From NCBI GenBank assembly GCA_963709385.1, contig CAVPWD010000012.1, positions 336,989 to 400,988 of the forward strand: a DNA stretch of 64,000 bases, in the 5' to 3' direction. Each line of letters starts with the position of its first letter. Positions within the stretch are counted from its first letter, which is position 1. The DNA comes from an uncultured Acidobacteriaceae bacterium. GTDB taxonomy: Bacteria; Acidobacteriota; Terriglobia; Terriglobales; Acidobacteriaceae. Positions 12,825 to 51,196 of the stretch are shown here, in pieces. Below the pieces are notes generated by a model, which saw only the letters and a program-made list of their open reading frames with translations, did not search any database and had not been told where the DNA came from. A program made the translations under genes and the position numbers.

Positions 12825-12928
12825 AATTGAAAGCTCGCGTTCAGAATTCAGGGCCCCGAAGCGCAGACATTCAGAATACCGGAGCGGCAGGGTTATGGGG
12901 AATGGGTTGACGAGTACGGGTGGTTTTC

Positions 12929-13061
12929 GGTCTTAGGTCCTGGGTATTAGGTCTTATGCATTCCGCCGCGAACTCGGATCTCCCGACAGCAGGGCCAAGA
13001 CCTAAGACCCAAGACCTGATTCCCACTACTCCTGCTCAAGACCAAAGACCCAACACCCAAA
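12929..13061. repeat. inverted arrays of degenerate heptamers (GGTCTTA-type / AAGACCT-type)
   Basis: GGTCTTA GGTCCTG GGTATTA GGTCTTA at 12929-12955, then ~42 nt, then AAGACCT AAGACCC AAGACC at 12998-17 and CAAGACC AAAGACC CAACACC at 13037-61. Intergenic. Confidence 0.7.
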
Positions 13062-27188: not shown

Positions 27189-27540
27189 TCGACCGGCACA
27201 ATCTTGACTAGCTATTGTCAAGTCCACTTTCGTAGGTATAAAACGTCCTCGAAAGTAGACGTTTCTTCCACAGCCTAACCCGTTGCATCTGCACCTGCGC
27301 CGAATCCCTCACTCGTCGAATCAATTACTTATGAAAGGCAAATCCGCCGATTTCCACAGTGTTCCCGTAGGAACACTTCGCTCTCCAGACGCCAATGCCG
27401 GCCCACGTCTCACGCTTTCCTTCGTGCACCTTCGTGCCCTTCGTGGTGATCGCCTTTGTTCAACGTCAAACCCGCGCTGAGTCCTCCGCGTTGACGACGC
27501 CCGTCATCCACCCTAAGATTGAGGCTCCCAACCTTGCAAC

Positions 27541-27596
27541 CAAGCATGATCAACCAAGCATGATCAACCAAGCATGATCAACCAGGCATGATCAAC
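27541..27596 (+). repeat. 14-bp tandem repeat x4 (CAAGCATGATCAAC) containing the kinase start codon
   Basis: Three perfect copies plus one copy with a single A-to-G change. Each copy carries ATG and GATC. The last ATG (27588) starts the kinase ORF. Confidence 0.9.
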
Positions 27597-29585
27597 CAGA
27601 CCATCTCGCACTACCGCATCACTGGCCGCGTGGGCAGCGGCGGGATGGGCGTCGTCTACGAAGCGGAAGACCTCAACCTGGGCCGCAAGGTCGCGTTGAA
27701 ATTTCTCCCGCCGCTCCTCTCGCGCGACCAGAACGCTCTCGACCGTTTTATGCTGGAGGCGCGCACCGCCTCGGCGCTGAATCACCCTAACATCTGTACG
27801 ATCTACGCGGTCGAAAAATCAGGCGACGGTGCGGACGCGCAGTCCTTCATCGCGATGGAACTGCTCGATGGCCAGAACCTCGATCAGAAGCTCTACTCCG
27901 GCCCGCTTCCGACCGGCCCGTTACTCGATATCGCGATTCAGCTGGCCGACGCGCTCGACGCCGCGCACGCCAAGGGAATCATTCACCGCGACATCAAACC
28001 GGCAAACATTTTTCTCACCGCGCGCGGTCAGGTGAAGGTGCTGGATTTCGGTTTGGCCAAGCTGTCTCGCCCCGAAATGCAGATGGAAACCATCGGCGCG
28101 ACGCAGGACTCGCCCAGCCCGAACCTCACTAGCCCCGGCGCAACCGTGGGCACCATCGCCTACATGTCGCCCGAACAAGCGCGGGGCGAAGAACTCGACA
28201 CACGTTCTGACCTGTTCTCCTTGGGCACTGTGATTTACCAGATGGCCACGGGCAAGCAGCCCTTCGCGGGCGCGACCTCGGCGGTGGTGTTTCACGCCAT
28301 TCTCGAACTCGATCCGCCCTCTGCGCTGCAACTGAATGCGACGCTCCCGCCCAAACTGCAGGAGATTATTGAGAAGCTTCTGGAGAAAGATCACGACCTG
28401 CGTTACCAATCGGCCGCCGATCTGCGCGGCGACTTGAAGCGCCTGAAGCGTGACACCGAGTCGGGAAGAAAAACCGCGGCGTCGTCCTCCGCTTCAACGT
28501 CGACTCCGGCTGCGGCCGTCCCGTCGTCGGCAGCGGGCGTTTCGGCTACCGTTGCCGCGACCCGAGCGTCTTCGGGCTCTGCCGTGGTTGCGGCGGCAGG
28601 ACGACACAAGCTGGGAACCAGTTTGACCGTCGCTCTTGGCATCGTCGTACTGCTGGCGGCGGGTTATGGAATCTATTCGCTGCTGCTGACGCACCGTCGC
28701 ATGCGGCCGTTCCGCAACTTCTCCGCCACCAAGGTGACAGAGGAGGGCAACGTGGTCTTTGCGGCGGTGTCGCCCGACGGCAAGTACATCCTCAGTCTGA
28801 TACGGGACAGAGGTCTGGCCAGCCTCTTGCTGCGCAACGTGCCCACCAACAGCGTGACCCAGGTGCAGCCACCGGCCGAGGTCTACTACGGCGGGCTGCG
28901 GTTCGCTCCCGACGGGAACTATTTTTATTTTGTGCGCAGCGATCCTGGACCGGCGCCTGACCTGAAGTTTCTGTATCGCGCGCCGTTGTTGGGCGGCACT
29001 CCAGAAAAGCTGGCCGAAGACGTGGATTCAAACATCACGTTTTCCCCGGATGGCCGCAGGCTAGCCTTCATGCGTTACGACAACCCCGAGCCAGGTAAGT
29101 ACCAGCTGATCGTGCGTTCTGTCGATCAGGGAGTGGAGAAGGTGTTGACCAGCGGTCCGGCGGGTCAGGGACTCAGCGCTCCCGCGTGGTCGCCCGACGG
29201 CAAGACGATTTTGTGCCTCGCCACCCAGCCGGGGACTGCCCTTACCGGGCTCATGGCAGTGGACGCAAACACCGGCCTGCAGCGCCTGGTGATGAGTTCC
29301 GGCGACGCTTTAGGATTGCCGACATGGATGCCCGACGGCAGCGGCTTGCTCGCTCTCGACAGCGATCGCACGAGCAATTACACGCGGGCGCAGATCGTTT
29401 TTGTGTCGTATCCCGATGGCTGGGTGAATCCGGTCACCCGCGACACCAACAATTATTCCGATCTCAGTCTGGCGGCCAATGGCCAGCTACTGGCCACCGT
29501 GCTCAGCGAGGGGCGCTGGAATCTGGCGGTGATGTCGACGGCCAGCGCCGGGGCTGACGTGCGTGCCGATCGGACCGGTGGTTAA
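27588..29585 (+). CDS. Ser/Thr protein kinase with TM segment and TolB-like beta-propeller, part 1
   Basis: Hanks kinase motifs ([38 protein letters not shown]), then a TM helix and WD40-like beta-propeller repeats (SPDGK, APDGN, SPDGR). Confidence 0.85.
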
Positions 29586-37001: not shown

Positions 37002-37147
37002 GTCGTTGGTCGTTCGTCGTTGGCCGTTAGCCAAACACTTTCAGTGTTCGTGAAAATCCCCACGTCTCGCAAAGGACGCTAGACATGGGGCACCCAGCCG
37101 TTGGTTTGCCAACGACCAACGACCGACGACCAACGACCTGTGACCAG
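37002..37147. repeat. composite element: inverted GTCGTTG-type heptamer arrays flanking a REP hairpin
   Basis: GTCGTTG GTCGTTC GTCGTTG GCCGTTA (37003-30), then AACACTTTCAGTGTT, then the AAAATCCCCACGTCTCGCAAAGGACGCTAGACATGGGGCACCC unit (37053-95), then CCAACGA CCAACGA CCGACGA CCAACGA (37109-36). Confidence 0.75.
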
Positions 37148-37161
37148 TTTACAATCGGCGC

Positions 37162-38613
37162 GTGAATCTGGACGACACCATTGTCGCGATTGCCACACCC
37201 ACAGGGCGGGGAGGGATTGGAGTGGTGCGGCTGGCGGGACCTGCGGCGCGAGAGATCGTTGCGCCTATGCTGCGGCTGCGGCATGAACTGGAGGCGGGGC
37301 GGGCGGTGTTGGGGGAGTTGGTTGAGCCGGAGGTTTCCGCTTCAGTGCAAGAAGTCAAAATCCCCACCCCTTCGGCAAGCTCAGGGCAGGCTCTCTTTCG
37401 CGAAGAACGCGAAAGAAGGATGGGGCACCCGCAGCATCGGATCGACGAGGTGGTCGTCACTTATTTTTCCAAGCCACATTCTTATACGACCGACGACATT
37501 GTCGAAATTTCGGCGCATGGGGCGCCGGTGGTGTTGCGGCATATTGTGGAGCTTTGCGTGGCGGCGGGGGCGCGGCTGGCGGAGCCGGGCGAGTTCACCA
37601 TGCGTGCGTTTCTGAACGGGCGCATCGATCTTACGCAGGCGGAGGCGGTGCGCGATCTGATCGATTCGCAGACGTTGTATCAGGCGAAAGTCGCGGCGCA
37701 GCAACTGGAAGGCGCGCTGTCGCGGCGGTTGCAGCCGATCAAGAAAACGCTGGTGGAGCTGATTGCGGTGCTCGAAGCCGGGATTGATTTTGCCGAAGAC
37801 GACGTGTTGGTGATGGCGGACGCCGCGATTCTTGATCACATTGCTTCCGTTCGTAAACCCCTAGAGCAGCTGAACGCCACATTTGCTTACGGCAAGATCG
37901 TGCATGAAGGCTTGACTCTGGCAATTGTGGGGCGGCCGAACGTTGGGAAGTCGAGCCTGTTTAACCGGTTGGTGGAGCGGGAACGGGTGATCGTCACCGC
38001 GACTCCGGGGACCACGCGCGATTTGGTGAGCGAGACGGTCGCGATTGGCGGGATCCCGGTCAAGCTGATCGACACAGCCGGCATTCGCGAGGCGCTCGAT
38101 GAGGCGGAGTCGATCGGGATTCGCAAATCAAAGGAGGCGCTGGCCGACGCAGACCTGGTGTTGGTCGTGCTCGACGCATCGCAACCGGAGACGGCGGACG
38201 ATGCGGAACTGCAGCGGCTGGCTGAGGGCCGGCCGGCGATTGTCGTGGGAAACAAGTGCGACTTGGGAAGCAGTGGACAGTGGACAGGGGCCAGTGGTCA
38301 GAAGGTTCTTACTTCAGCGATCACTGGCGCGGGCATGGCCGAACTTCGCGAAGCCATTCTGCGACACATTGGTGGTGAGGCGGGAGCGCCGGCGGAGTCT
38401 GGTTTTCTGACCAGCGTTCGCCATCAGGGATTGATCAACGATTCGATGGCTGCGCTGGATGCGGCAAAGGTTGCGGTGACGGGGAAGATTCCGCACGAGA
38501 TGCTGCTGCTCGATCTTTACAACGCGCTGCGGCCGCTGGATGCGATCACGGGGGCGACTACCACAGACGATATTCTGAATTTGATTTTCAGCACGTTCTG
38601 CATCGGGAAATAG
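37162..38613 (+). CDS. mnmE: tRNA modification GTPase MnmE
   Basis: N-terminal [20 protein letters not shown] domain [18 protein letters not shown] and NKCD. C-terminal CIGK. Confidence 0.95.
37357..37430 (+). repeat. REP-like hairpin element embedded in frame in mnmE
   Basis: AAAATCCCCACC...CTTTCGCG-AAGAA-CGCGAAAG...GGATGGGGCACCC has the same termini as the intergenic units at 37053-95 and 42334-76. It encodes [25 protein letters not shown]. Confidence 0.65.
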
Positions 38614-39854: not shown

Positions 39855-39872
39855 TGGAGAACATTGTACGGG

Positions 39873-39907
39873 AGCTATCAGCTATCAGCTATCAGCTGTC
39901 AGCTATA
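39873..39907. repeat. heptamer tandem repeat (AGCTATC)x3 + AGCTGTC + AGCTATA
   Basis: Read directly from the sequence, 19 nt upstream of the ruvA start in the divergent intergenic region. Confidence 0.85.
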
Positions 39908-40003
39908 AACTGTGAGCAAATGAGTCCACGAAAAACCCGGAAATCAGCTCGGCTAGAAGGTCGCGATGGACAGCGTTTCCGGGCACTCTTAGAATCTCTT
40001 CGC

Positions 40004-40555
40004 ATGGTCTTACGGCGAGCTGCGATGTTTGCGTGGATGGTGCTTGTTGGCCTGACCGCGGCGTTCGCACAGACTGGCGCTGATCACGACGGGAACGCGG
40101 CCAGGCTGCTTTCGCCGGGTAAAGTTGTCGTGATGGTGTTTCTGCGACGGGACTGCCCGGTTTCGAGCCGCTATGCGCCGGTGATTCAGCAGATCAGCAA
40201 GACGTACTCCAGTCGCGCGAAATTCTTTCTAATATTTCCGGACAAAGCGGATTCTGCGGCGGACATTCAAAAATATCTGACAGATTACCGGTATTCCCTG
40301 CCCGCGTTTCCCGACCCCCGCCACATGCTGGCGAAACTGGGACACGTGCAGATCACTCCGGAAGTGGCGGTCTTCAGCGACCGTCAGCTGGTCTACGATG
40401 GGCGCATTGACGACTGGTATATCGAGTTGGGCAAGGCGCGTTCCGCGCCTACGACCCATGAGTTGAAAGACGCGCTGGACGCGGCGTTGGCCGGAAAAAC
40501 CCCGGCTCGCGCCGAGGTCAGGGGAGTGGGATGCTACATTTCCGACATGGAATGA
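40004..40555 (+). CDS. secreted thioredoxin-fold (redoxin-like) protein
   Basis: ORF 39854..40555. ATG at 40004 gives a signal peptide. Redoxin-like core with CPVS in place of CxxC. Confidence 0.6.
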   Translation: MVLRRAAMFAWMVLVGLTAAFAQTGADHDGNAARLLSPGKVVVMVFLRRDCPVSSRYAPVIQQISKTYSSRAKFFLIFPDKADSAADIQKYLTDYRYSLPAFPDPRHMLAKLGHVQITPEVAVFSDRQLVYDGRIDDWYIELGKARSAPTTHELKDALDAALAGKTPARAEVRGVGCYISDME

Positions 40556-42327
40556 CGCGCATCCTCGGGCTCGTGGTCGGAACGGCGGCGCTCGCTGCGC
40601 AGAATTCCAAGCCCGTCACCTTCAATCGCGATATTGCCCCGATCATTTTTCGTTCCTGCTCGACGTGTCACCGGCCGGGTGAGGCTGCGCCGTTTTCTCT
40701 TCTGACGTATTCCGACGTGAAAAAGCACGCGCGGCAGATTGCGGAAGTGACGCGGTCGCGGGCTATGCCGCCGTGGCTCCCCGAGCCGCAGGCCCTGAAG
40801 TTTGCCGACGAACTGCGCCTGCCAGAAGCCGAAATCGAGCGAATCGAGCGCTGGGTCGAGCAGGGAGCGGTCGAGGGCGACGCCGGCGATCTGCCCGCGC
40901 AGCCGAAATTTGTGGAAGGCTGGCGCCTCGGGAAACCGGACATGGTGCTCACGGCGACTAAGCCGCTTACGCTTCCGCCGCAGGGCACGGACACCTATTG
41001 GAACTTTATTTTCCCTGTGCCGATTCAAGAAACCCGCTGGGTGAAGGCCGTCGAGATTCGTCCGGGCGATAAGCGCTACGTGCACCACGCCAACATTCTG
41101 GTCGATCGCTCCGGCGCATCGCGCAAGCGCGAAGCCGAGCCGGGCGCTGGTTTCGGTGGCATGGAGATTCGCATCGAATCGCAGGTGTTCGATCCCGATA
41201 GCCATCTTCTCTTCTGGAAGCCGGGGACAGTTCCTTACGTTGAGCCGGAAGGAATGGCGCTAAGGCTCGATAAAGGAACTGATTTGATTCTTAACACGCA
41301 CCTGCAGCCATCGGGGAAGCCGGAGGTGATCCAGCCGAGCATTGGACTCTACTTCACGCCGCAGGCCGCGACGAAACTCCCCATGCTCCTGCAGCTCGAA
41401 AATGATTTGAAGCTCGATATTCCGGCCGGGGATGGGGATTTTCTAGTCACCGATGACTTCGCGCTGCCGGTTGATGTAGATCTGATCGCGATCTATCCGC
41501 ATGCACATTATCTGGGGAAGGATATTCAGGCGTTCGCGACATTTCCTGACGGCACGAAGACAACGCTGATTCACATTCCGCAATGGAATCTGAACTGGCA
41601 GGCGGTGTATCGCTATGCGGAGCCGGTGCGGCTGCCGAAGGGGACGACAGTGAGTTTGCGCTACACCTACGACAACTCGGCGGAGAATCCGCTGAACCCG
41701 AATCATCCTCCGGTGCGGGTGGTGGCCGGGAACCGGTCGAGCGACGAGATGTGCCACCTGTGGCTGCAGGTGCTGCCAGTGAATTTCGACCCCGCGGACG
41801 GCGATCCGCGGATGGCGCTGCAGGAAGCGTTGGCGCGGCGTGATGTGGAGAAAAATCCTGCCGACTTTGAAGCGCATTACAACCTGGCCGCGATGCTGCA
41901 GGCGAAAGACAAGCTGGAGGCGGCGATCGGCGAATACGAATCGGCAGTGCATTTGCGGCCAGCGGATGCGGCCGCGAACAATGCTCTTGGAGCGGCGCTG
42001 GTGGCGGCGGGGCGTCCCGAGCAAGGAGTCGGATATTTGCAGACCGCGTTGAAGGCGCGGCCGGACTATTTCGAGGCTCACTACAATCTTGGCCTGGTGC
42101 TGGCCGGCCAGAGCCAATTCCAAGAAGCCGCTCAACAATTTACATTCGCGTTGCAATTGCAGCCGCAGGATGCCAACGTGGAGGCCAACCTGGGAGCTGC
42201 GCTGGCGGAGATGGGAAGATTTGCGGAAGCGAAGGCGCACTTCGAGCATGCGTTGCAGCTCGATCCTGAGCAGCCCATTGCGAAAGAGAATCTGGAAATG
42301 GTGAAGAAGGAAATGGGGGCGCACTAG
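40552..42327 (+). CDS. protein with CxxCH heme-binding motif, copper type II monooxygenase-like domain and C-terminal TPRs
   Basis: ATGA overlap with the upstream gene. CSTCH motif in a planctomycete-cytochrome-like segment. His-rich beta-sandwich segment (YVHHANILV, IYPHAHYLG). The TPRs start around residue 440. Confidence 0.65.
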   Translation: MTRILGLVVGTAALAAQNSKPVTFNRDIAPIIFRSCSTCHRPGEAAPFSLLTYSDVKKHARQIAEVTRSRAMPPWLPEPQALKFADELRLPEAEIERIERWVEQGAVEGDAGDLPAQPKFVEGWRLGKPDMVLTATKPLTLPPQGTDTYWNFIFPVPIQETRWVKAVEIRPGDKRYVHHANILVDRSGASRKREAEPGAGFGGMEIRIESQVFDPDSHLLFWKPGTVPYVEPEGMALRLDKGTDLILNTHLQPSGKPEVIQPSIGLYFTPQAATKLPMLLQLENDLKLDIPAGDGDFLVTDDFALPVDVDLIAIYPHAHYLGKDIQAFATFPDGTKTTLIHIPQWNLNWQAVYRYAEPVRLPKGTTVSLRYTYDNSAENPLNPNHPPVRVVAGNRSSDEMCHLWLQVLPVNFDPADGDPRMALQEALARRDVEKNPADFEAHYNLAAMLQAKDKLEAAIGEYESAVHLRPADAAANNALGAALVAAGRPEQGVGYLQTALKARPDYFEAHYNLGLVLAGQSQFQEAAQQFTFALQLQPQDANVEANLGAALAEMGRFAEAKAHFEHALQLDPEQPIAKENLEMVKKEMGAH

Positions 42328-43488: not shown

Positions 43489-43494
43489 CTTTTC

Positions 43495-43615
43495 TCCGCG
43501 ATCTTCGCGGATTTCCTTCGCGACCTCTGCGGGTAAGAGCTTTTCGCTAGCCTGCGGAAAAAGCGTTTAACCGCAGAGGCCGCGAAGAAAGGCCGCAGAG
43601 GTCGCAGAGAGGGGC
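43495..43615. repeat. REP-like mosaic (CCGCAGAGG/CGCGAAG units) between convergent genes
   Basis: Long imperfect hairpin: CCTTCGCGACCTCTGCGG (43515-32) pairs with CCGCAGAGGCCGCGAAGA (43571-88), plus a direct repeat GGCCGCAGAGGTCGCAGAG. Related CTTCGTG units occur at 27416-27447. Confidence 0.55.
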
Positions 43616-43620
43616 AACGG

Positions 43621-45675
43621 CTAGAGTGCGGCGGCTTGCTCGCGCCGGCGAGCCTGAATTTCGACATAGACGTTCACCAACGACACCGCTGCCGGGGTCA
43701 CTCCTGGGATGCGCGAGGCCTGGCCCAGCGTGCGCGGTTGCACTTTGCTGAGCTTTTCCTGCATTTCGCGCGAGAGGCCGCTGACGGAGCGGTAGTCGAA
43801 CCATTCGGGGATGGCATGCTGCTCGGACTTTTTCAGGCGCTCCATGGCGCGCTGCTGCTGCAGCAGGTAGCCTGCGTACTTGATCTCGGTTTCGACGGAT
43901 TTCAGTTCGTTTCTTACTTCCGACGAGATCTTCACCACAGGGGAGAACCTTGCGAAGAAATCCGGGGTGAGCTCTCGCAGGACCGGCAGCAGTCGCTCGA
44001 TTGCGATTTCCGGGCGCTTTAGCAACTGACCCAGCGTTTGTCCGAGGGCAGACGACAGGTCGGCAGTTGGGGCGCCGCCGGCGACAGCAGGTTCCTCACC
44101 CTCGCTTCGCGAGAGTTCGGAATGACAAGACGCCAATATTTCGGCGGTGATCCGAGTGGTCTCCAACAACTTCTTCAGCTTCTCCAGCCGCTGCTGCTTC
44201 GCCTGAAAATCTTCCCAGGCTTCATCATGAATGAGCCCGACGCGGCGGCCGTGGGGAGTGAGGCGGCGGTCGGCGTTGTCGATGCGGAGGTGCAGACGGA
44301 ACTCGGCGCGCGACGTGAACATGCGGTAAGGCTCGTTCGTGCCCTTCGAAATCAGGTCGTCGATCAGGATCGCGGTGTATGCTTCGGTTCGGTCGAGAAT
44401 CAGCGGCGGTTGTTGCTTTACTTGCTGCGCGGCGTTGATGCCGGCCATCAATCCCTGGCACGCGGCTTCTTCGTAGCCGGACGTCCCGTTGATCTGGCCC
44501 GCGAGGAACAGGTTCGCGATCTTGCGGGTTTCGAGCGTGCGCTCCAGTTCCGTTGGATCGATCGAGTCGTATTCGATGGCGTAGCCCGGCCGCAGCATTT
44601 CGGCGTTCTCAAGCCCGGGGATCGACTTCAGAATCGCCATCTGCACTTCGACCGGGAGGGAGGTGCTCATACCGTTAACGTAAATCTCGTGCGTGTTCAG
44701 GCCTTCGGGCTCGAGGAAAAGCTGGTGCGTCTCCTTGTCGGGAAATTTCACGATCTTGTCTTCGATCGAGGGACAGTAGCGCGGGCCGATCGACTGAATC
44801 TGGCCGCTGTACATGGGCGAGCGATGCACGTTCTCGCGAATGATGCGGTGTGTCTCGGCCGTGGTGTAGGCGATGTAGCAGGGCACTTGTGAGTCGTGAT
44901 GCGCGACGCGCTTCGTTCGAAAACTGAACGGAGTGGGATCGGCGTCGCCCGGCTGCTCCGCGAAGCGCGACCAGTCGATGCTGCGTCCATCCAAGCGCGG
45001 CGGAGTGCCGGTCTTGAGCCGGCAGCCGCGCAGGCCCAACTTTTTCAGCGCTTCGCCGAGCAGGACGGCGGCGGGTTCGCCGGAACGTCCGGCAGGATAT
45101 TGTTGCTCGCCGCAGTGGATGAGGCCGTTCAGGAACGTTCCGGTCGTGATGATGACGGCTTGCGCGCCCACGGTGCGGCCGTCGCGAAGGCGAATGCCGA
45201 GAACCCGGCGTCGGTCGTTGGTCGTTAGTCGTTGGTCGTTAGCAAAAGCGTCGCCATCCTGCGGGTCGGCCAACGACGAACGACCAACGACTAACGACTC
45301 GACTTCCGCCTGCTTGATCTTCAGATTCGGCTGCGACTCCAGCACTTCGCGCATTTTCAGGCGGTAGGCCTGCTTGTCGCATTGGGCGCGCGGCGACCAG
45401 ACGGCGGGGCCGCGCGACGTATTGAGCAGACGAAACTGGATGCCGACCGCGTCGGTGATTTCGCCCATGATGCCGCCGAGGGCGTCTACTTCGCGGACCA
45501 GGTGTCCTTTGGCAATGCCGCCGACGGCGGGGTTGCACGACATCTGCGCAATCAGATCGACGTTGAGCGTGTAGAGCGCGGTCTTCAGGCCCATGCGCGC
45601 GGCGGCCATGGAAGCTTCGCATCCAGCATGGCCGGCGCCGACCACGACTACGTCGAATTGTTCGGTGAATTGCAT
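43621..45675 (-). CDS. mnmG: tRNA uridine 5-carboxymethylaminomethyl modification enzyme MnmG (GidA)
   Basis: [18 protein letters not shown] motif, then [24 protein letters not shown] and the C-terminal [13 protein letters not shown]. Confidence 0.95.
44091..44135 (-). repeat. REP-like element (GTCATTCCGAAC family) embedded in frame in mnmG
   Basis: The coding strand reads TGGCGTCTTGTCATTCCGAACTCTCGCGAAGCGAGGGTGAGGAAC and encodes [14 protein letters not shown]. It matches the intergenic copies at 56559-97 and 7773-7804. Confidence 0.6.
45213..45298. repeat. inverted GGTCGTT / CCAACGA heptamer arrays embedded in frame in mnmG
   Basis: GGTCGTT GGTCGTT AGTCGTT GGTCGTT, then a 27-nt loop, then CCAACGA CGAACGA CCAACGA CTAACGA. 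Confidence 0.8.
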
Positions 45676-47683: not shown

Positions 47684-48895
47684 ATGTCGCTGCAATTTCA
47701 GATTGAAAAGACTGCCGGCTCTGCCCGCCTCGGGCGCCTGATCACGGCGCATGCGGTGATCGAGACGCCGGTGTTTATGCCGGTCGGGACCGTGGCGTCG
47801 GTCAAGGGCGTGTCTCAGGACATTCTGGAAGAACTGGGCGCGCAGATTATTCTCGGCAATACCTATCACCTCTACCTGCGGCCCGGCATCGATACGGTGC
47901 GGAAGATGGGCGGGCTGCATGGGTTCATGGCGTGGCGGCGGGCGATCCTGACGGACTCCGGCGGGTTCCAGGTCTTCAGCCTCAACGAACTGCGCAAGGT
48001 CAGCGAAGAGGGCGTGACGTTTCGTTCGCACCTGGATGGGTCTTCTCACTTCTTCAGCCCGGAGAGCGCGATGCAGGCGCAGATCGGGCTGGGCGCCGAC
48101 ATCATCATGGCGTTCGATGAATGCACGGAGTATCCGGCGGATCGCGCGCGGATGCGGGATTCCATGGAGATGACCGCGCGCTGGGCGGCGCGCAGCAAGA
48201 AATATTTCGAAGAGCATAAGCATGAAGTGCCGTGGAACCAGGGGCTAGGGGCCAGTGGCCAGGGATCAGGAGATCAGGGGCCAGAGGCTCCGGCTAATCC
48301 CTTGCCCCTAGCCCCTAGCCCCTCGACCCAATCTCTCTTCGGCATCGTGCAGGGCGGGATGGATCGCGAGTTGCGAAGAGAGTCCGCCGAGCGGACGGTT
48401 GAAATCGGATTTCCCGGCTATGCAATTGGCGGACTCAGCGTGGGTGAGCCGCGCGAGCTTACGCGCGAGATGGTCGAATCCACGCTGGAGCACCTTCCCT
48501 CGGACAAGCCACGTTATGTGATGGGCGTGGGTACGCCGGAAGAAATTGTCGAGTATGCCAGCCTGGGCGTGGACATGATGGATTGCGTCCTGCCGACGCG
48601 GGCGGCGCGGCACGGGCTGCTGTTTACGTCGGAGGGCAAGGTTTCGATCAAGCAAGCGCGCTACGCCCAGGATGCGGGGCCGCTCGACCCGAATTGCTCC
48701 TGCCGGGTGTGCCATCGCTATTCGCGAGCATATTTACGTCATCTCTATGCTTCTAATGAAGTTCTGGCGCAGGTCCTGAACACGATCCACAACCTGAGTT
48801 TCTACCTTGACACTATGCGGCGGGTGCGGCATTCTATCTCACTTGGGGAAGAGGCTCGTTTTCTTTCGAGTGTATGGTCTCTACCGAAACCGTAG
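47684..48895 (+). CDS. tgt: queuine tRNA-ribosyltransferase
   Basis: ORF 47624..48895; ATG at 47684. Motifs TPVFMPVGT, LTDSGGFQVFS and GYAIGGLSVGEP, plus zinc site CSCRVC...H. Confidence 0.95.
   Translation: MSLQFQIEKTAGSARLGRLITAHAVIETPVFMPVGTVASVKGVSQDILEELGAQIILGNTYHLYLRPGIDTVRKMGGLHGFMAWRRAILTDSGGFQVFSLNELRKVSEEGVTFRSHLDGSSHFFSPESAMQAQIGLGADIIMAFDECTEYPADRARMRDSMEMTARWAARSKKYFEEHKHEVPWNQGLGASGQGSGDQGPEAPANPLPLAPSPSTQSLFGIVQGGMDRELRRESAERTVEIGFPGYAIGGLSVGEPRELTREMVESTLEHLPSDKPRYVMGVGTPEEIVEYASLGVDMMDCVLPTRAARHGLLFTSEGKVSIKQARYAQDAGPLDPNCSCRVCHRYSRAYLRHLYASNEVLAQVLNTIHNLSFYLDTMRRVRHSISLGEEARFLSSVWSLPKP
48241..48323. repeat. inverted GGGGCYA / TAGCCCC heptamer arrays embedded in frame in tgt
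   Basis: GGGGCTA GGGGCCA GTGGCCA GGGATCA GGAGATCA GGGGCCA ... TAATCCC TTGCCCC TAGCCCC TAGCCCC. Confidence 0.75.
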
Positions 48896-49044: not shown

Positions 49045-49386
49045 TTGAATATGCACGTTTCAAATATGCAGGCTCTATTTTTATTGCAGGCACCGAGTGG
49101 TGGTGGCGGCATGTCGCTGCTGATCATGTTCGTGCCCATGATCGCCATTTTTTACTTTCTTCTGATCATGCCCCAGCAACGCCGCCAGAAAAAATGGCAG
49201 GCCATGCTCGACCAGTTGAAGACGGGCGATAAGGTTACGACCAGCGGCGGGTTGCGGGGAACGATCATTGCCCTGAAAGATGACGCGGTGCATCTGCGCC
49301 TGCCGCCCGACAATCTGCGGGTGGAAGTGACCAAGGCCTCGGTCATGCAGGTGACCACGGTCGAAGACGAAGTGAAGACGAAGTGA
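49045..49386 (+). CDS. yajC: preprotein translocase subunit YajC
   Basis: TM helix followed by the PQQRRQKKWQAMLDQLKTGDKVTTSGGLRGTI pattern. The start could be 49045, 49051 or 49066. Confidence 0.85.
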   Translation: MNMHVSNMQALFLLQAPSGGGGMSLLIMFVPMIAIFYFLLIMPQQRRQKKWQAMLDQLKTGDKVTTSGGLRGTIIALKDDAVHLRLPPDNLRVEVTKASVMQVTTVEDEVKTK

Positions 49387-49388
49387 AA

Positions 49389-49481
49389 CAGTTGCCAGCG
49401 GCCGGTTGTCAGTTGCCAGTGTTTGGCCAACGGCAGCTCATGGTTGTGACTGGCAACTGGCAACAGACAACTGGCAACTGG
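49389..49481. repeat. inverted CAGTTGC / TGGCAAC heptamer arrays in the yajC-secD gap
   Basis: CAGTTGC CAGCGGC CGGTTGT CAGTTGC CAGTG, then a 26-nt loop, then GAC TGGCAAC TGGCAAC AGACAAC TGGCAAC TGG. Confidence 0.8.
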
Positions 49482-49489
49482 TTCTCATC

Positions 49490-51103: not shown

Positions 51104-51104
51104 G

Positions 51105-51196
51105 AATTGAGCCATTGAGCGATTGGATCATTGAGCGATTGAAAAACTATTTAGTTTTCAATCACCCAATAACGCAATCGGCAAATCACGCAATTC
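51105..51196. repeat. inverted heptamer arrays (..ATTGAGC.. / ..CAATC..) in the secD-secF gap
   Basis: AATTGAGCCATTGAGCGATTGGATCATTGAGCGATTGAAAAA, then an 8-nt loop, then TTTTCAATCACCCAATAACGCAATCGGCAAATCACGCAATTC. About 29 of 41 positions are complementary by my hand alignment. Confidence 0.75.

Follow-up and report, generated by a model that had tools for sequence, protein, structure and literature searches.

The tgt gene of an uncultured Acidobacteriaceae bacterium (class Terriglobia), which encodes the queuine/preQ1 tRNA-ribosyltransferase Tgt, carries within its open reading frame (ORF) a palindromic element whose two arms are inverted arrays of a 7-nucleotide (nt) unit. The gene lies in a 64,000-nt stretch of contig CAVPWD010000012.1, the whole of which was analyzed and is called the window here. 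The relatives used for comparison are Tgt sequences from 120 clusters, which are 77-97% identical to the window Tgt (most 82-93%), together with about 170 further genomic and metagenomic tgt loci; individual loci are identified by L numbers. The features of the gene that matter most are the following.

47684-48895, forward strand: tgt, an ORF of 403 amino acids (aa) that hosts the insert.
48236-48325, forward strand: the in-frame, repeat-derived insert, codons N185-S214 (NQGLGASGQGSGDQGPEAPANPLPLAPSPS), unaligned to every solved Tgt structure.
48233-48330, no strand assigned: the whole imperfect palindrome found by inverted-repeat search, with arms at 48233-48269 and 48294-48330.
48239-48288, forward strand: the 5′ arm, composed of the degenerate heptamers CAGGGGC TAGGGGC CAGTGGC CAGGGAT CAGGAGAT CAGGGGC CAGAGGC, found by Tandem Repeats Finder (TRF).
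48299-48325, forward strand: the 3′ arm, composed of the heptamers CCCTTGC CCCTAGC CCCTAGC CCCTCG(A), also found by TRF.

The host protein is readily recognized as a Tgt. Its translation includes the catalytic and zinc motifs LTDSGGFQ, MMDCV and CSCRVC..H, and solved structures of Tgt proteins from E. coli, Z. mobilis and T. maritima match it with E values of about 1e-117. The structure alignment falls into two blocks (query residues 4-177 and 216-396) that leave 38 residues unaligned, compared to 4 in E. coli Tgt. A preliminary description of this DNA had counted about 35 extra residues at this site. The extra segment is indeed real, but the net gain over the commonest, or baseline, loop of Terriglobia is only 23 aa. 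The same description placed the limits of the palindromic insert too widely, since the flanking residues ‘HEVPW’ and ‘TQ’ belong to a conserved Terriglobia loop rather than to the element. The element proper, which the conserved ‘HEVPW’ and ‘TQS’ flanks therefore confine to N185-S214, is a 90-nt imperfect palindrome that contains a multiple of three nucleotides and no stop codon, and that is flanked in the protein by conserved EVPW and TQS-LFGIVQGG.

Each arm of the whole palindrome is 37 nt long, and the two arms are 81% complementary and separated by a 24-nt spacer (48270-48293). Within them, nucleotides 48240-48252 pair with 48311-48323 to form a perfect 13-base-pair stem, and the predicted RNA fold has a free energy of -63.1 kcal/mol (z = -3.8). 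TRF assigns a period of 7 both to the 5′ arm (48238-48288; 7.1 copies, 75% matches), whose unit can be summarized as a degenerate (C/T)AGGGGC, and to the 3′ arm (48299-48323; 3.6 copies, 94% matches), a TAGCCCC array. All three occurrences of the sequence GGGGCTAGGGGC in the window lie within the tgt element, 0.33 being expected by chance. Such structures far exceed chance expectations in the window generally: there are 13 period-7 arrays and seven inverted repeats whose arms reach 30 nt or more, whereas 20 dinucleotide shuffles of the window yield zero or one array and no such inverted repeat in any shuffle. No direct repeat flanks 48233-48330, although the arms themselves could act as terminal inverted repeats. 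Comparison with Rfam 15 at gathering thresholds returned only eukaryotic microRNA-precursor look-alikes below threshold, which are generic long hairpins (best match 36.7 bits, against a threshold of 97), and a protein search with a 44-aa synthetic version of the insert peptide gave no candidate.

The reading frame leaves a distinct mark on the element. If all units were perfect, an array of (TAGCCCC)n or (GGGGCTA)n would have one in-frame TAG per 21 nt. The in-frame TAG positions of the 3′ arm instead read TTG (48302) and TCG (48323), while both out-of-frame positions retain TAG. Similarly, the in-frame xAG triplets of the 5′ arm (48239, 48260 and 48275) are all CAG, and the sole TAG of that arm is out of frame. 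Two of the three mismatches in the stem coincide with in-frame TAG positions, and pairing has been sacrificed by selection so as to remove stops. By contrast, the heptamer AACGACC is free of stops in every cyclic frame on both strands, and the hairpin that it forms in the mnmG gene of the window is 87-100% complementary. Frame keeping was scored in Terriglobia loci that include both anchors of the Tgt loop (n = 132, or 133 with L019), and all 132 scorable alleles keep the frame and lack a stop codon; spot checks agree. Together, the inverted-repeat, TRF, folding and allele-frame data bear out the earlier proposal that a hairpin of inverted heptamer arrays preserves the tgt frame.

Because the frame is kept without exception and stops are purged exactly where they would be read, we interpret the insert as translated, not skipped. 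A stable GC-rich hairpin within a coding sequence is also characteristic of translational bypass elements, such as those of T4 gene 60 and the mitochondrial ‘byp’ sequences, and might be thought to mark an intervening sequence that is absent from the protein owing to ribosomal bypassing or to excision at the RNA level. However, a skipped segment would need neither frame nor stop removal, and bypass elements, which need not keep the frame, usually contain stops, whereas every tgt allele is in frame and the in-frame TAGs of the ideal repeat have been specifically mutated. We therefore consider an absent segment to be very improbable.

Where does the peptide lie in the enzyme? An AlphaFold2 model of the window Tgt, built from an alignment of 81 more diverse Tgt sequences, has a mean predicted local distance difference test (pLDDT) score of 86.6 and a predicted template modeling (TM) score (pTM) of 0.86, and it superimposes on Z. 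mobilis TGT with a target-normalized TM score of 0.94 and a root-mean-square deviation of 1.9 Å. A model made from 50 near-identical sequences had a mean pLDDT of 50 and was discarded as unusable. In the accepted model, residues 191-210 have pLDDT values below 50 and form coil without secondary structure, following helices H154-178 and H183-188 and preceding strand E217-222 (LFGIVQ). The insert is thus predicted to be a disordered alpha-to-beta surface loop of the barrel, with the remaining fold that of a canonical Tgt and undisturbed. As a general rule, the catalytic residues of TIM barrels are located at the C-terminal ends of the strands, and an alpha-to-beta loop would by that rule lie on the opposite face. 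This agrees with the surface location far from the active site that had been raised as a possibility for the insert, where disorder is predicted by the model and the orientation away from the active site is suggested by barrel topology.

Close relatives reveal how the insert changes over short evolutionary distances. Locus L084, which is 96.6% identical to the window over 15 kb, carries an identical insert. In L081, the 3′ arm is longer by 21 nt (three units), and in L082 and L083 the 5′ arm is shorter by 15 nt; the frame is kept in each case. Variants of the insert are present in L081 and in L165 through L171. These same comparisons bear on the suspicion that the element is an assembly or sequencing artefact. 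Repeats and hairpins are indeed prone to error, and some of the related contigs are long-read assemblies with split genes. Nevertheless, the identical insert in the independent assembly L084, the variants in eight other samples, and the identity of L082 with L083 even though the two derive from JGI and ENA data sets make an artefact scarcely credible.

Ten alleles of the GGGG type were used for tests of divergence and covariation. At the amino-acid level they diverge by 0.45 within the insert and by 0.10 outside it in the flanks, a difference of about 4.5-fold that rules out a conserved functional peptide. Nucleotide divergence in the insert (0.26) falls between the values for all sites (0.16) and for four-fold sites (0.41) of the flanks.

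Among the wider set of relatives, the sequence between the invariant EVPW and TQS-LFGIVQGG is hypervariable. The distance from FDEC to FG is 71 aa in the window and ranges from 46 to 143 aa, with the baseline value of 48 aa in 32 of the 132 loci. At least eight unrelated classes of insert occupy this one loop, a hot spot throughout the lineage. The GGGGCTA type (GLGARDQGS...PLPLAPSPS) is found in about 20 clusters, whereas other heptamer hairpins are translated quite differently: the CAGTACT class reads QYSVPSTQYS..NRVLSTEY and the CAGTTTC/GGAAACC class reads VSSFQFPVSS..KPETGN, and further hairpins are built from CAGTGGT, CAGTTGC, CAGTTCT, TCGCTGT and AACGACC. Palindromic inserts that are not made of heptamers (AAKNAARMGHP, KQIPRFARNDK and HVGTAAPGC..AGQPGAAVPT) are often nested between heptamer arms. 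Short and apparently empty alleles (AENGGGDTRA) occur in Tgt proteins 88-90% identical to that of the window, as close as many filled ones, and L002 exhibits an apparent clean insertion beside the retained ancestral GGARA segment of L009. Protein-level conservation of the segment in relatives, which would have refuted the earlier description, is not what the orthologs display: the segment is hypervariable, and other repeats take its place.

Two loops are worth describing individually. In L042 (3526-3867), 115 aa separate the anchors, about 95 above baseline, and TCGCTGT / GCGAATA arms enclose three copies of ‘VLRFAQDDN / VPRFARDDK’, which is the clearest example of nesting. In the Tgt of a metagenome-assembled genome of Pseudomonadota (L079:1577-1696), the same loop carries a tandem duplication of 17 aa x2 (DAQGSASVAGGRTPGAT), and therefore tolerates insertions outside Acidobacteria too.

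The tgt element is a member of a larger and very abundant class of heptamer-array hairpins in Terriglobia. The strongest inverted repeats of the window are almost all array hairpins, and the following features of the window, most of them such hairpins, accompany the one in tgt.

45209-45298, reverse strand: the mnmG element, an in-frame TCGTTGG / CCAACGA hairpin within mnmG (43621-45675).
37002-37137, no strand assigned: an intergenic AACGACC (TCGTTGG/CCAACGA) hairpin upstream of mnmE, with a core resembling repetitive extragenic palindromic (REP) sequences nested in its loop.
49380-49489, no strand assigned: a CAGTTGC / GCAACTG hairpin in the yajC-secD spacer, found by TRF and as inverted repeats.
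12922-13060, no strand assigned: an intergenic GGTCTTA / AAGACCT hairpin plus a third array, the hairpin proper being 12922-13017.
38271-38301, forward strand: a single in-frame CAGTGGA array of 4.4 copies in mnmE, found by TRF.
51104-51196, strand not given: a hairpin in the secD-secF spacer with period-8 arms (ATTGAGCG-like), found as inverted repeats.

The mnmG hairpin has arms of 30 nt that are 87% complementary, including a 20-nt core that is 100% complementary, and it adds 21 aa relative to solved MnmG structures (E. coli MnmG). It matches the tgt element in architecture while using a different heptamer, just as first described. The period-8 arms at 51104-51196 demonstrate that this architecture is not strictly bound to 7 nt. 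Regardless, a period of 7 predominates. A TRF survey of 805 kb of acidobacterial loci (the window, L001-L045 and L081-L171) identified 122 period-7 arrays, which are not independent because many occupy orthologous sites, versus 37 of period 8 and at most 15 of any other period. The median copy number of the period-7 arrays is 4.3 (interquartile range 3.7-4.6). In the same survey, CAG/CTG is present in 61% of heptamer units, where 25% would be expected, and CAGT/ACTG in 37%, where 4.5% would be; the CAG(T) is phased.

Individual unit families recur at different places. The AACGACC family is present at unrelated loci, namely mnmG, the intergenic site of the window, and the Tgt loops of other Terriglobales. 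GGGGCTA-like hairpins occupy the yajC-secD spacer of L165, L169, L170 and L081, where the window has its CAGTTGC hairpin and L168 has GGTTTCC. Paired arrays near tgt are also found in one Geobacter and one Poribacteria locus.

Several other observations were made in and around these repeats. MnmG lengths in the window and its close relatives L082, L084, L165, L167 and L171 span 684-718 aa, and the protein has a second variable stretch near residues 513-560; mnmG therefore also has hypervariable, repeat-bearing loops. Compared with solved MnmE structures, the product of mnmE (37162-38613) contains about 40 inserted aa at residues 54-92. Among them is ‘RMGHPQ’, which is encoded by the REP-like core; this core is also present in the loop of the 37002-37137 hairpin. 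The secD ORF as called begins at TTG 49406, inside the yajC-secD hairpin, whereas its homologues begin with MTKNYLWK at an ATG near 49470, and the first ~21 codons of the called ORF are therefore probably non-coding. The array with the top TRF score in the window, (CAACCAAGCATGAT)x4.4 at 27537-27598 (97% matches), has an ATG in every unit, and a Ser/Thr protein kinase ORF starts with the last of these units. Three does not divide its period of 14, so a gain or loss of units would shift the upstream start codons.

Two further sites differ between the window and its close relative L084. At 43490-43627, between a TPR gene and the mnmG stop codon, the window contains a 136-nt hairpin resembling a miniature inverted-repeat transposable element (52-nt arms, 79% complementary), which is flanked by CTAG and is missing from L084, a polymorphism of filled and empty sites. 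Upstream of ruvA, the window carries (AGCTATC)x5 at 39873-39917, and L084 carries (GGTCTTA)x3 plus a hairpin. Beyond these arrays (window 39872-40618; L084 2094-2945), about 750 bp are non-homologous and include different genes. Here one segment has been replaced by another, with a heptamer array at the boundary. The occurrence of one unit family at unrelated loci and these differences between the window and L084 are our reasons for ascribing turnover or mobility to the class.

We propose, with a probability of about 0.7, that the tgt element is a slippage-prone or non-autonomous hairpin repeat that is tolerated in a permissive loop of Tgt and translated. Its source would be a copy of a dispersed hairpin repeat of non-coding type, with arms made of inverted arrays of TAGGGGC / GCCCCTA. 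This repeat would have entered the loop between helix and beta-strand, growth in place being less likely. Transcription and translation with the rest of tgt would then yield a loop of about 30 residues, rich in Gly, Gln, Ser and Pro and predicted to be disordered. Selection would be limited to maintaining an open frame with a length divisible by three, such that the in-frame TAGs of the ideal array are mutated to CAG, TTG or TCG while the peptide drifts, and replication slippage would add or remove array units. Over time, the loop may accumulate, nest and lose unrelated palindromic repeats, and so act as a ‘safe harbour’ for them. The arrival of the repeat by insertion, its near-neutrality and its manner of spread are what we infer from these patterns, while its structure, the kept frame, its hypervariability, its position in the loop and the abundance of its class are shown by the data above.

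Certain observations weigh against this proposal. Among the GGGG-type alleles, the stem columns made of G-runs and C-runs have a pairwise identity of 0.87, compared to 0.59 for unpaired columns of the insert, a value that matches the identity at four-fold sites in the flanks. Moreover, all ten alleles still fold. The insertion point is nearly constant across lineages, 1-2 codons after Trp184, so tolerance alone is not a full explanation. Finally, the 64-kb window contains no second copy of the GGGGCTA type, and no mobilizing enzyme (transposase or RAYT) was found among its 20 larger ORFs. Given these absences and that of a target-site duplication, mobility of the GGGGCTA family in this genome is only putative.

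The conservation of stem columns could reflect selection on the hairpin or on the G-tracts, although the hint is weak because repeat units align mutually and the paired columns were chosen from the same sequences. If selection of this kind operates, the hairpin or a sense-strand G-quadruplex might serve as a cis-regulatory element (for instance by pausing translation between the barrel halves, by providing a site for RNase III, or as a signal in replication or transcription), with the peptide as a by-product. Similar G-rich heptamers from Xanthomonas and Nostoc form G-quadruplexes in vitro (PMC4692102), and when the long inserts of every class are pooled, 62% have folds with z below -2. However, some alleles carry decayed inserts that do not fold, nearly a quarter of alleles (32/132) do without any insert beyond the baseline loop, and pairing has been given up where it conflicted with an open frame. 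RNAalifold detects no covariation among the ten alleles (covariance term +0.79, with double changes in 2/22 pairs), and the site offers neither a terminator-like feature nor an Rfam match above threshold. A selected nucleic-acid structure is, on this evidence, quite improbable.

That neither a transposase (among the 20 larger ORFs) nor a target-site duplication was found would fit a local origin of the arrays. The 7-nt unit would then have multiplied in place by slippage, its inverted arm would have formed by hairpin-templated strand switching (quasi-palindrome correction), and transposition would play no role; the different heptamers seen at one site would represent concerted evolution of a single ancient array. 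Changes in unit number confined to one arm fit such a process. So do the heptamers of Tgt loops, which chain by single-base steps (CAGGGGC, CAGTGGC, CAGTTGC, CAGTTTC, CAGTTCT, CAGTACT), and the mixed arrays, in which CAG stays constant and the tail varies, in the L171 spacer and in the 5′ arm of the window. In addition, polymerase slippage has been proposed to favor 7-nt units, as quoted in PMC4679880. Local growth does not readily explain why one heptamer family, with both arms, is found at mnmG, at an intergenic site and in the Tgt of another clade, or why genomes that are 96.6% identical have different heptamers at one site next to non-homologous DNA. Likewise, unrelated non-heptamer repeats reside in the same Tgt loop, and the apparent clean insertion in L002 leaves the ancestral sequence intact. 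We therefore regard an entirely local origin as unlikely.

A bolder hypothesis extends the proposal of a tolerated hairpin repeat. Heptamer-array hairpins might constitute a distinct class of DNA element, either self-propagating or generated enzymatically, that spans phyla. Its defining marks would be a pair of inverted arrays with about four units, a CAG(T) in constant phase, and arms that remain complementary even though the unit changes. Such elements may land preferentially in existing hairpins, and a small number of permissive protein loops, among them the loop that follows Trp184 of Tgt, would then be hit repeatedly. We offer this as a tentative possibility that for now falls well short of even odds.

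Palindromic DNA within bacterial genes has precedents. The Rickettsia palindromic elements (RPEs) described by Ogata et al. (2000) form families of 105-146 bp with a defined consensus in an obligate intracellular alphaproteobacterium (PMC3733652, PMC3184786). RPEs resemble the tgt element in being short palindromic repeats that lie in frame in intact housekeeping ORFs and correspond to protein loops. The tgt element similarly is a stem-loop palindrome in an intact ORF that retains its catalytic motifs. RPE families occupy intergenic positions as well; in the window the AACGACC family is both genic and intergenic, whereas GGGGCTAGGGGC is confined to tgt there. Unlike the RPEs, the tgt element has arms that are tandem arrays of a 7-nt unit, a unit that differs between copies, and a free-living soil acidobacterium as its host, and a single Tgt loop is colonized repeatedly by unrelated elements.

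REP sequences, which are single stem-loops of 20-40 bp with a GTAG or CGTC tag, the GTAG type being tied to RAYT transposases (PMC3733652), have also been found in frame in genes for DNA repair and RNA modification, including a tRNA pseudouridine synthase, and were interpreted as insertions in flexible loops (Di Nocera et al., 2013, PMC3733652). They share with the tgt element an in-frame position in housekeeping genes and tolerance in loops. However, both ends of the tgt element lack a GTAG or CGTC tag, its units carrying CTAG instead, its arms are arrays, and the absence of RAYT among the larger ORFs of the window has been noted above. A further parallel is offered by the Borgs, archaeal extrachromosomal elements in which fast-evolving direct tandem repeats in ORFs add intrinsically disordered segments to proteins (PMC9879509). 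Disordered segments made of repeats are thus common to both, but the repeats described here have a period of 7 and a palindromic arrangement.

The arrays themselves also have counterparts. Their CAGT/ACTG motif is common to many acidobacterial units and to the unit TAACTGA. Cyanobacteria carry short tandemly repeated repetitive (STRR) heptamers, reportedly described by Mazel in 1990 and by Elhai in 2008 (the latter concerning small dispersed repeats within heptamer arrays), and STRR1 and STRR3 reportedly contain CAGT as well. TAACTGA arrays occur in Beggiatoaceae and cyanobacteria (PMC4679880). Xanthomonas and Nostoc have arrays of GGGAATC and GGGGAYT, respectively, and each Xanthomonas genome carries 70-75 convergent pairs capable of forming stem-loops (PMC4692102). 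The acidobacterial arrays have in common with these published examples a period of 7, about four units, G-rich units and convergent pairs. Specifically, they exhibit the overrepresented period of 7 in 3-5 copies that is typical of heptamer simple sequence repeats. Whereas the published arrays are described as intergenic, depleted from coding sequence and dominated by one unit per genome (PMC4692102, PMC4679880), many units coexist in the loci studied here, and the arrays in tgt, mnmG and mnmE are located in frame within ORFs. Our literature search, whose incomplete coverage makes this a weak absence, found no papers on heptamer hairpins or in-frame repeats in Acidobacteria.

In principle, the phenomenon is an ordinary one, a selfish or slippage-prone repeat that is tolerated in a protein loop. 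Three things are new: a hairpin with array arms that lies inside ORFs, a Tgt loop that has been colonized again and again, and a class of elements that is abundant in Terriglobia and has a motif in common. In-frame colonization of conserved proteins by selfish or slippage-prone palindromic DNA is best known from Rickettsia; the present case shows that it is also common in soil Acidobacteria, an abundant group, and that it extends to heptamer arrays, which the literature regards as intergenic. The excess of period 7 and the common CAG(T) motif point to a single mechanism, for which we know of no enzyme.

One practical consequence concerns metagenome-assembled genomes, in which inserts of this kind make proteins longer and can cause errors in annotation, in the calling of start codons and in alignments. 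For evolutionary biology, more than 130 alleles and at least eight repeat classes in one enzyme loop represent a natural experiment on the birth of disordered segments, and the same alleles can be used to follow the erosion of palindromes under coding constraint and to estimate the rate of element turnover. If heptamer-array hairpins do prove to be a distinct class of element, then permissive loops such as that of Tgt would be a continuing source of new disordered segments in the proteins of free-living bacteria.

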